A stretch of 64,000 nucleotides of DNA from Escherichia phage VEc74. How positions within the stretch are numbered: position 1 is the first letter of the stretch; the number at the start of each line of letters is the position of its first letter. The translations under genes were made by a program, and so were the position numbers. The DNA is taken from the sequence record MT932213.1; one strand, given 5' to 3'. The notes below the pieces were generated by a model that worked only from the letters and a program-made list of their open reading frames with translations, had not been told where the DNA came from and did no database searches. This document shows positions 33,529-35,397 of the stretch, piece by piece.

Positions 33529-33654
33529 TTTTGTGAAAAAATTTTTAAAAGTTTTAGGGAATTCTAGGGGCAGGGAGGGGCAATTAAAAGATAGGATAAT
33601 ATATTATAAAGGATAGAAACTAAATGATGCCTAGAGATGTCTGGAAAGGCCTAG

Positions 33655-33688
33655 ATACCAAAAAGCCCCAACCTTTCGGTCGGGGCTA
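33655..33688 (-). terminator. Rho-independent terminator at the end of the tRNA/small-RNA transcription unit
   Basis: minus-strand GCCCCGACCGAAAGGUUGGGGC hairpin followed by UUUUUGG. Confidence 0.6.
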
Positions 33689-33699
33689 AGCCTTGCGGC

Positions 33700-34003
33700 A
33701 ACCTTGTCGGGGTTCCACCTGCTAAGGCAAGTGTTTGTACGAAACGCCGGGATTCGAACCCGGTTATTAAGTAGTTGACGCTACTCAATATTTTTAAAAG
33801 GCCATATCTCGACCATATCCGAACGTTCCGTCAAAAACGCTACTCGGCTTACGGCAAAGATATTTCCTCGAATCGATAATTCGGTGCGCCGTTTCTGCTG
33901 TGATATAAGGGGACATTAACAAAACATAAAGATTTATTAATGCCAGTCCTTAAACAGGGAACATCAGTCCGACGACTTGCCGGTAGCGACCCGGCTTCTT
34001 GTC
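33700..34003 (-). ncRNA. Small stable RNA region with tRNA-like elements (T4 rnaC/rnaD-like position); boundaries not resolved
   Basis: No ORF; contains a T-arm-like CCGGGTTCGAATCCCGG and an anticodon-arm-like hairpin without an acceptor stem; lies between tRNA-Arg and the terminator. Confidence 0.3.
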
Positions 34004-34079
34004 TGGTCGAGGCAGTAGGGATCGAACCTACGACCCAGGACTTAGAAGGTCCTTGCTCTTCCTTCTGAGCTATGCCTCG
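34004..34079 (-). tRNA. tRNA-Arg (anticodon UCU)
   Basis: Hand-folded cloverleaf: acceptor CGAGGCA/TGCCTCG, anticodon loop CUUCUAA, T-loop GGTTCGATCC, encoded CCA. Confidence 0.85.
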
Positions 34080-34083
34080 TATT

Positions 34084-34158
34084 TGGCGGACGTGATAGGA
34101 TTCGAACCTATAACCAATCGCTTAACAGGCGATCGCTCTGCCATTGAGCTACACATCC
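34084..34158 (-). tRNA. tRNA-Asn (anticodon GUU)
   Basis: Acceptor GGATGTG/CACGTCC, anticodon stem ATCGC/GCGAT with loop CUGUUAA, T-loop GGTTCGAATCC, CCA. Confidence 0.85.
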
Positions 34159-34758: not shown

Positions 34759-34764
34759 GCTATA

Positions 34765-35397
34765 TTATTTATTACGTGAAAAAGACTGTTCTATCAATTC
34801 TGGACACTTTCGTTCTATCCATTTTCTAGCTTTTTGTGGGCTTATACCTATTATTTTAGCAGCTTTACTAACCCATCCAAATTTAGAATAATCGATTTTA
34901 ACTAATTCTTCGTAAATTTCATCAGTTAAAATCTTTTCATTAATATTTACCAGTAAATGATATAATTTATTATCATTAGCAATTTTAATGAATCTTTTAT
35001 AGTTTCCGCCTTTACTTAAGCCTAATGAAGTAATTGCAGATGATATAGTAGCCGAATTTAATAGTGCGTTTAAAATTTCTTCATCACTAACATTATAACG
35101 CTTTTTATTATTTTTAATATTTTTACCAGCAAAAGTATCAGTTTGCGAATGGCAGTTTGGACATAATAATCTTAAATTTGATTTAAGATGATTTTTGTTA
35201 TTTCCATCAATATGGTCTAATTGCAGAACAATATGCTTATTTTGCCATTTTGAAATTTTACAAATTGCACACTCATATGGAAAAATATTTTCTTTTATTA
35301 TTTTGTCTTTCAGCTTTCCTGTACTAAAATTTGGATGTTTTCCTTCAAAAATTTCAGCTAATTTAGTATCCATAATATGATTCCCAATTATTAACAA
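34765..35397 (-). CDS. HNH homing-endonuclease-like protein (free-standing)
   Basis: HNH signature CAIC...LQLDHIDGNNKNH...NLRLLCPNCH plus C-terminal HTH-like region; stop 6 nt upstream of tRNA-Leu. Confidence 0.7.
   Translation of the reverse strand: MLIIGNHIMDTKLAEIFEGKHPNFSTGKLKDKIIKENIFPYECAICKISKWQNKHIVLQLDHIDGNNKNHLKSNLRLLCPNCHSQTDTFAGKNIKNNKKRYNVSDEEILNALLNSATISSAITSLGLSKGGNYKRFIKIANDNKLYHLLVNINEKILTDEIYEELVKIDYSKFGWVSKAAKIIGISPQKARKWIERKCPELIEQSFSRNK

Follow-up and report, generated by a model that had tools for sequence, protein, structure and literature searches.

What lies between the last tRNA gene and the terminator of the tRNA operon in Escherichia phage VEc74, a T4-like phage (Tequatrovirus)? 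The interval in question, 33700-34003, was analysed within a window of 64,000 nucleotides (nt) taken from sequence record MT932213.1; all coordinates are window positions, and the tRNA array, the two RNA genes rnaD and rnaC, their trailer and the terminator are all on the minus strand. A sequence-only reading had placed the interval between tRNA-Arg and a strong terminator, found no credible open reading frame (ORF) in it, and offered three explanations, i.e. counterparts of the two small stable RNAs of phage T4, tRNA-derived decoys, or degenerate tRNAs. The setting was recovered as described: tRNA-Arg (UCU) at 34004..34079, the final member of the array, was called by ARAGORN and scored 65.8 bits with the Rfam model for tRNA, with the interval directly on its 3′ side. 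No ORF above 45 amino acids (aa) was present over 33700-34003 in any frame. The terminator scan gave an intrinsic terminator of the tRNA/rnaD/rnaC transcription unit at 33664..33687, comprising a hairpin of 10 base pairs (bp; 7 GC) followed by a T run, and the same element is labelled terminator in phage NBG2. It is very probable that the region consists of the known phage genes rnaD and rnaC and forms the tail of the tRNA operon, terminating at this hairpin, with a processing route and a function that are proposed below in more guarded terms.

Identity was established by a megablast query of 33600-34100 against 50,697 phage records. The query matched 755 records, nearly all of Tequatrovirus, with the closest matches at ca. 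98-99% identity (NBG2, RB14, RB3), and in RB3, RB5-RB10 and T4 the matched stretch is labelled rnaD (species II RNA) and rnaC (species I RNA, “small, stable RNA”). The proposal of counterparts to the small stable RNAs of T4 is thereby borne out. Two RB3 records, KM606994 and the curated tRNA-region entry AJ884578, were used for annotation: the rnaD features of both map onto 33882..34002 (species 2 small stable RNA, 121 nt), and the rnaC feature of AJ884578 maps exactly onto 33736..33875 (species 1 small stable RNA, 140 nt, with a tRNA-like cloverleaf). An alternative annotation of rnaC covers 33876..33738 (139 nt). The assignment of rnaC to species 1 follows its full-length homology to T4 rnaC (139/140 identical positions) and its location on the same strand at the end of the tRNA cluster, and that of rnaD to species 2 follows the homology of its ends to T4 and RB3 rnaD and its location upstream of rnaC. 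Compared with T4, 102 of 122 rnaD positions were identical, the ends being conserved and the differences clustered in the middle. With the respective covariance models, rnaC of the window scored 166.7 bits and rnaD 150.6 bits (model R3).

The order, strand, trailer and terminator downstream of tRNA-Arg are the same as for the species 1 and 2 RNAs of T4. In comparison with T4, the central hairpin of rnaD in the window differs at many positions, its 3′ end has CACCG where T4 has CACCA, and the array follows the RB3/T2 pattern (Asn, Tyr, Met; no segB), without tRNA-Gln. Both genes are already known and annotated in sister phages. The non-coding RNA label is carried by few records (RB series, T4, ATK48, RB68), and hundreds of T4-like genomes in GenBank have a “hypothetical protein” over rnaC/rnaD or no annotation. 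Rfam 15 holds no family for either RNA; 33700-34003 gave no match at the gathering thresholds, and at E-values up to 10 matches of chance level only, the weak ones including a tRNA-Sec-like match of 17 bits (E = 1.5) and a 10-bit tmRNA match to the T loop. Beyond the annotations found, sequence comparison adds a cloverleaf for rnaC that covariation supports, a candidate contact between two of its loops, and evidence that both RNAs form families, absent from Rfam, across many genera of Tevenvirinae and Marfavirus.

The minimum free energy fold of rnaC as a single sequence was the cloverleaf (-50.1 kcal/mol, z = -4.7), and RNAalifold returned the same cloverleaf from a plain MAFFT alignment of 19 homologues, with compensatory changes in 26 of 41 pairs. 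When our structure was scored on the MAFFT alignment, 91.3% of alignment cells were paired, against 36-46% with slid partners; 23 of its 45 pairs were compensatory, and 0 of 500 shuffles were as good. Among 27 model-aligned homologues from about ten genera, 92.1% of cells were paired and compensatory changes were seen in 32 of 51 pairs. Genuine tRNAs align end to end to the rnaC covariance model at ca. 20 bits, which fits a tRNA-derived architecture. The description tRNA-derived therefore suits rnaC, as its cloverleaf with acceptor and T arms is backed by covariation.

The perfect T-arm-like element of the sequence-only reading (CCGGGTTCGAATCCCGG) was located as one exact copy in the window, and shuffled sequence gave 0 matches even with two mismatches permitted. 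It is the T arm of rnaC, CCGGG-UUCGAAU-CCCGG (33747..33763), the middle pair of which covaries (G-C 11, U-A 12, A-U 2). The T arm abuts an acceptor 3′ strand as in tRNA, and the claim that an acceptor stem is lacking had to be reversed: the 5′ strand CGAUUCG (33869..33875) pairs with CGUUUCG (33746..33740), directly 3′ of the T arm; CGUUUCG and a 4-nt tail, UACA, together make up 33736..33746 according to sequence and alignment. The third pair of the stem covaries across genera, being A-U in 10 of the 27 sequences (T4-type), G-C in 16 (nearly all others) and G·U in one (PM2). Acceptor positions 4 and 5 form a tandem U·U in 26/27 sequences, and U-A, U-A in PM2. Marfavirus and PM2 encode UCCA as the 3′ tail, in place of the UACA seen in the window, T4 and most genera; from this distribution, the ancestor of rnaC may have had a genuine CCA end.

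At the D-arm position, rnaC has a long arm of 70 nt (33799..33868), built of the helices P2a, P2, P2b, P3a and P3, with compensatory changes in 19/23 pairs and in agreement with RNAalifold. It begins immediately 3′ of the acceptor strand and is tipped by the hexaloop UUGACG (33834..33829). A linker of 8 A/U-rich nt leads to hairpin P4 (33765..33790) at the anticodon-arm position, with a 10-bp stem, nine of its ten pairs compensatory, and the hexaloop CGUCAA (33780..33775); a single unpaired A separates P4 from the T arm. P4 is one of two structures that answer to the anticodon-arm-like hairpin reported earlier, the other being the 5′ hairpin of rnaD. Two copies of GAGTAGCGT were likewise present as reported, at 33845..33837 and 33786..33778 (expectation ca. 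0.19 copies; two copies reached in 1/100 shuffles), and one forms the 5′ strand of P3, the other that of P4. The first copy could alternatively pair with the 3′ strand of P4 in T4-type phages. The repeat was rejected as a functional repeat or switch, as the first copy does not exist in Gelderland-, Marfa- and PEi20-type RNAs and hence is not conserved. Another candidate, an internal acceptor helix between ACGGAACG (33831..33824) and the 3′ strand, suggested by the Rfam tRNA-Sec match, was also rejected: its key pair is unpaired in 10/19 homologues, none of its pairs is compensatory, the segment is missing in four genera, and the bases belong to hairpin P3.

The two hexaloops of rnaC, UUGACG on the long arm and CGUCAA on P4, are perfectly complementary (chance ca. 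1 in 4,000). Loop-loop pairing holds in 99.4% of alignment cells, and in the Marfavirus clade both loops change together, to UUGGCG and CGCCAA, by one compensatory change of A-U to G-C. Pattern scans of IMG/VR and one metagenome scan for more divergent homologues that could bear on the loop pairing yielded few new variants. On balance, the complementarity and its maintenance favour a loop-loop interaction in rnaC, either within one molecule or between two. A second candidate contact came from a mutual-information scan, which was dominated by phylogeny and gave 33803/33757 as the sole clean signal. The internal-loop base just 5′ of CCU (33803; G75) is G when the second T-loop base (33757; U55) is U (23 sequences), and C when 33757 is G (4 sequences, of Winklervirus and the CIP9-type Kanagawavirus). 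This covariation, which may stem from no more than one or two events, hints at a tRNA-elbow contact like G18-Ψ55. Pairing between the two RNAs, i.e. of the rnaD loop CGCUAC with GUAGCG of rnaC, was considered and taken as chance, as it showed no covariation in PM2, Winklervirus and PetCM-type sequences.

In rnaD, the first 49 nt and the last 25 nt are nearly invariant among 14 phages of the T4-, Dhaka-, Mosig- and Gaprivervirus groups, and the central ca. 50 nt occur in three unrelated sequence versions. The 5′ hairpin P1 (33979..33995), GCCGG-GUCGCUA-CCGGC, has a 5-bp stem and a 7-nt loop, and all five pairs are compensatory across 17 homologues, distant ones included. The 3′ strand CGGCGCAC (CGGCG-C-AC; 33884..33891) closes a long rod with GUCGUCG (33976..33970); both helices were returned by RNAalifold. 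In the rod-closing helix 96.6% of cells pair, and PM2 and Moon carry C-G instead of G-C at the inner-end pair. Two invariant segments, AUGUUCCCUG and AUCACAGC, are opposed as the internal-loop core of the rod; they have zero variation and thus give no covariation signal. The hypervariable apical hairpin (33906..33954) is the site of the three unrelated versions in T4-like phages and shows compensatory changes within one version. Overall, 88.7% of cells were paired in rnaD, against 27-46% in slid controls, with 17/37 pairs compensatory. No acceptor/T-arm module is present in rnaD.

When the T4-like phage BW-1 was adapted to E. coli ECOR34 in an evolution study of 2025, one convergent single-nucleotide polymorphism (SNP) arose in all lines, and it was in rnaD (PMC12685909). 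The SNP maps to the variable hairpin and yields an allele that is natural in related phages, which is a hint of a host-specific role; rnaD is probably a companion RNA with such a role. In BW-1 (L142 152-502), as well as in Elenatom (L143 152-502) and KMB38 (L140 162-506), a coding sequence of ca. 350 nt is placed between tRNA-Arg and rnaD, so that the 5′ end of rnaD is not always made by 3′ processing of tRNA-Arg. Conservation in these phages starts at AAGAA, just 5′ of rnaD P1.

These substitution patterns bear on two explanations in which the region would hold no functional RNA of its own. Decaying tRNA genes, i.e. pseudogenes or relics without a selected function, would agree with the hypervariable middle of rnaD, and with rnaC having tRNA-like arms although neither ARAGORN nor the Rfam model for tRNA (gathering score 29 bits) calls a tRNA in 33700-34003. 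Relics would not retain compensatory pairing, and the double substitutions that keep the pairing in 32/51 pairs of rnaC and 17/37 pairs of rnaD contradict this explanation; rnaC is also kept in about ten genera at just ca. 70% identity, with loop and junction positions invariant or nearly so. Across genera, the structures of both RNAs are strongly selected, and the term degenerate tRNAs, if taken to mean relics in decay, was abandoned as very improbable. That the region encodes small proteins is barely credible. Minus-strand ORFs of 42 and 45 aa overlap it, and many records carry hypothetical-protein features, but both ORFs begin with TTG and run across the boundaries of the RNAs, single-base indels separate the genera, substitutions track RNA pairing and not codon positions, and curated records label the stretches as non-coding RNAs.

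Homologues were searched for by blastn and with the covariance models. Outside the T4-like coliphages, rnaC was found in Gaprivervirus (VR7), Karamvirus (AS6, Pet-CM3-4, VPA32, CW742), Winklervirus (Virsaitis27, Kc304), Kanagawavirus (CIP9, PEi20, Kosakonia 305), Gelderlandvirus (CF-SP2), Moonvirus (Moon), Mosugukvirus (PM2), Citrobacter phage Ursula and the Klebsiella Marfavirus. In Karam-, Winkler-, Gelderland- and Moonvirus, rnaC is placed mid-array between two tRNAs, typically tRNA-Trp and tRNA-Gly, 4-5 nt after the CCA of the upstream tRNA. The condition under which the sequence-only reading would have been given up, namely that the region is an extended 3′ trailer only, is ruled out by these four genera, in which rnaC is inside the tRNA array and not at the transcript end. 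Dhakavirus (JS98, JS10, MX01) has kept rnaD, the trailer and the terminator, and rnaC is not present. Distant rnaD homologues were detected with the covariance model in Marfavirus (35 bits), PM2 (28.8 bits) and Moon (27.9 bits), and a Karamvirus contig gave a weak match of 14.6 bits. A host origin or host target of the region was also considered and dropped: when both orientations of the 314-nt region were searched against 5,426 E. coli genomes, no match was significant, although seeds shorter than ca. 20 nt would escape such a search.

Directly upstream of rnaC, Virsaitis27 (L006 626-705) and Klebsiella phage PWKp18 (L134 535-598) carry unannotated structured elements of ca. 60-80 nt. The last bases of the elements are ...CUCCCACCA or ...CCCACCCCAAGG, and their ends pair in the manner of an acceptor stem. 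They draw no ARAGORN call and may be further tRNA-like RNAs.

How would the two RNAs be released from the operon transcript? Enzymes of tRNA processing measure the 12-bp stack of acceptor and T arm. RNase P would cut the transcript at each tRNA 5′ end and also between U33876 and C33875, at the 5′ end of rnaC; the latter cut is proposed because rnaC has the 12-bp acceptor/T-arm stack and a U at -1. The rnaD-rnaC spacer, AAUUAU (6 nt, 33876..33881), was read directly and would serve as the RNase P leader of rnaC with this U at -1. Cleavage at the rnaC 5′ end would free rnaD with a short 3′ trailer, which 3′ exonucleases would trim back to the rod helix; the base that follows GCGCAC(C) in rnaD varies among phages (A, G, C or U), which fits a 3′ end trimmed in this manner. 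The 3′ end of rnaC would be trimmed to the 4-nt tail. In T4, the 5′ end of species 1 is made by RNase P, and the long helix of this RNA can be cleaved by RNase III. According to the passage of PMC2330249 that cites Broida and Abelson, T4 makes a precursor of ca. 1.75 kb that holds eight tRNAs and the species I and II RNAs and ends after species I. RNAC was detected by Northern blot in T4-infected cells, and RNAC and RNAD were classed as late RNAs, in a 2022 omics study (PMC9697503). The T4 late-promoter box TATAAATA was not found between 33700 and 36200. TTGACG was considered as a promoter -35 box and rejected, as no usable -10 was seen by reading at the right spacing and the promoter scan was silent there.

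Between rnaC and the terminator is a conserved structured trailer of 48 nt (33688..33735), the first 36 nt of which had been included in the interval 33700-34003, although it is a separate element. In a 15-phage alignment, the trailer is almost invariant, also in Dhakavirus without rnaC, and it (fold z = -3.9) folds into three small hairpins, one of which has been replaced compensatorily (GCC-GCAA-GGC to ACC-CUA-GGU). A processing site and a 3′ stabiliser are possibilities for its role. Just after the rnaC terminator, NBG2 (L003 1096-1655), RB14 and many other phages carry a 474-nt ORF and a second copy of the terminator, an insertion present neither in the window nor in RB3.

The shared transcript raises the question of whether rnaC and rnaD act only in cis, as modules that protect the 3′ end of the tRNA precursor or order the cuts by RNase E and RNase P, the stable species being functionless by-products. 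The T4-type arrangement of rnaD and rnaC at the operon 3′ end, beside the structured trailer and the terminator, speaks for it, as does the T4 precursor that yields both the tRNAs and the two RNAs in the cited passage of PMC2330249. On the other hand, rnaC placed mid-array in four other genera cannot be a 3′ cap; the loops, the tandem U·U, the 3′ tail and the rnaD core are invariant or nearly so, beyond the needs of a stabilising hairpin; and Dhakavirus, which keeps rnaD and the trailer without rnaC, shows that the modules are separable. A role in cis only is thus considered unlikely.

As for a role in trans, the architecture of rnaC suggests a tRNA mimic. It would be undecodable, its anticodon-equivalent loop being short and probably paired, and the U·U tandem and the A in place of C74 would make it a poor substrate for charging and ribosomal use. 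Such a molecule would occupy or titrate a tRNA-binding factor, most plausibly a defence protein or tRNA-directed nuclease of the host, or a factor of tRNA processing or translation. The decoys of the sequence-only reading likewise have the status of a hypothesis. An undecodable and probably unchargeable mimic acting on a tRNA-binding factor is what we tentatively propose, as a possible reading of rnaC and well short of a probable one. In a more specific and more doubtful form, rnaC of Tevenvirinae and Marfavirus would be a mimic that displays the acceptor/T-arm elbow, with its anticodon-equivalent loop hidden by the loop pairing and its acceptor end disabled by U·U and UACA, and would trap or inhibit a host tRNA-directed factor (e.g. 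an anticodon or variable-loop nuclease of anti-phage defence), with rnaD, whose tip diversifies rapidly, as a second host-range determinant in the same arms race. Phage tRNA islands have been linked to escape from tRNA-cleaving defences in work on Septu, tRNA-Tyr and SegB (PMC13096335). Taken together with the host-adaptive SNP in rnaD, this link would point to a factor of host defence or tRNA processing as the most attractive hypothetical target.

The RNAs might instead be base-pairing regulatory RNAs, in which the rnaC linker UUUAAAAA, both hexaloops or the rnaD core AUGUUCCCUG pair with phage or host mRNAs. They are small, stable, abundant and late, with invariant single-stranded segments, and are named “small regulatory RNAs” in PMC9697503. 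Set against this are the absence of a known target and of any significant match for the 314-nt region in the 5,426 E. coli genomes, the complementarity of the two rnaC hexaloops to each other, which argues for mutual pairing rather than target pairing, and the 2010 review, according to which no trans-acting small RNA of T4 had been characterised (PMC3014915). We regard regulation by base pairing as quite improbable.

Several points weigh against the reading of rnaC as a processed tRNA mimic with rnaD as its companion. The mature ends of rnaC vary between annotations (139 or 140 nt), the boundaries used here being assigned by homology. T4 phages deleted for the tRNA region are viable on laboratory hosts; on that footing any function would be conditional, and the same viability would suit a role in cis only. 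We infer RNase P processing of rnaC from its architecture and from background on T4. The T loop is non-canonical, UGCAU(N)C, in Winklervirus and the CIP9-type Kanagawavirus, so that recognition of a TΨC loop cannot be essential everywhere. The loop-loop pairing is supported by complementarity and by the single Marfavirus event, PM2 keeping 4/6 pairs, and an intramolecular kiss between an arm of ca. 24 bp and one of 10 bp would need a sharp bend. Finally, the roles of RNAC and RNAD are called unknown in the 2010 review (PMC3014915) as well as in PMC9697503 and PMC12685909.

Upstream, the minus-strand array runs from 34758 to 34004 and comprises nine tRNAs, i.e. Leu, Gly, Pro, Ser, Thr, Met, Tyr, Asn and Arg (ARAGORN, Rfam). 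In RB3, T4 and NBG2, a tRNA-Gln is found directly upstream of tRNA-Leu. In the window, it is replaced by a 210-aa ORF (35397..34765, minus strand; region 34759-35397) that stops 6 nt before tRNA-Leu and has an HNH-like motif (Pfam HNH 17.3 bits, below the 21.4-bit cut-off). The ORF probably represents a homing endonuclease gene that has entered the tRNA cluster.

Few RNAs were sequenced earlier than RNAC and RNAD, and the question of their function is about 50 years old. The pair represents an old question better framed and not a new kind of element: the covariation-backed structure, the spread across genera and the precise boundaries make the function question testable. A curated RNA family would prevent mis-annotation as “hypothetical protein” in hundreds of phage genomes.

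Among known systems, canonical tRNA (RF00005) shares with rnaC the four-way cloverleaf, the 7-pair acceptor formed from the two ends and adjoining a 5-bp T arm, the 7-nt T loop UUCGAAU, the 4-nt 3′ tail and the embedding in tRNA arrays. In contrast to tRNA, a 70-nt helix takes the place of the D arm in rnaC, P4 combines a stem of 10 bp with a loop of 6 nt instead of 5 bp and 7 nt, the acceptor contains a tandem U·U, and the tail in the window is UACA instead of NCCA. The tRNA-like domain of tmRNA resembles rnaC in that both ends of a longer RNA come together as the acceptor/T-arm part, with a large insert unlike tRNA between them. Unlike tmRNA, rnaC has no tag reading frame or pseudoknot series, and the window sequence has no CCA end; instead of the G3·U70 of tmRNA, pair 3:70 of rnaC is A-U or G-C in 26/27 sequences, with a single G·U in PM2, and ARAGORN called no tmRNA in the window. 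YrlA, a bacterial and phage Y-RNA-like RNA, is a non-coding mimic of the tRNA elbow like rnaC and also occurs in phages, but its ends form the Ro-binding stem and its tRNA-like part is internal, whereas the ends of rnaC form the acceptor stem. Kissing-loop RNAs such as ColE1 RNA I/II and the retroviral dimerisation sites have six complementary loop bases, as has rnaC, with the difference that in rnaC both loops belong to the same molecule.

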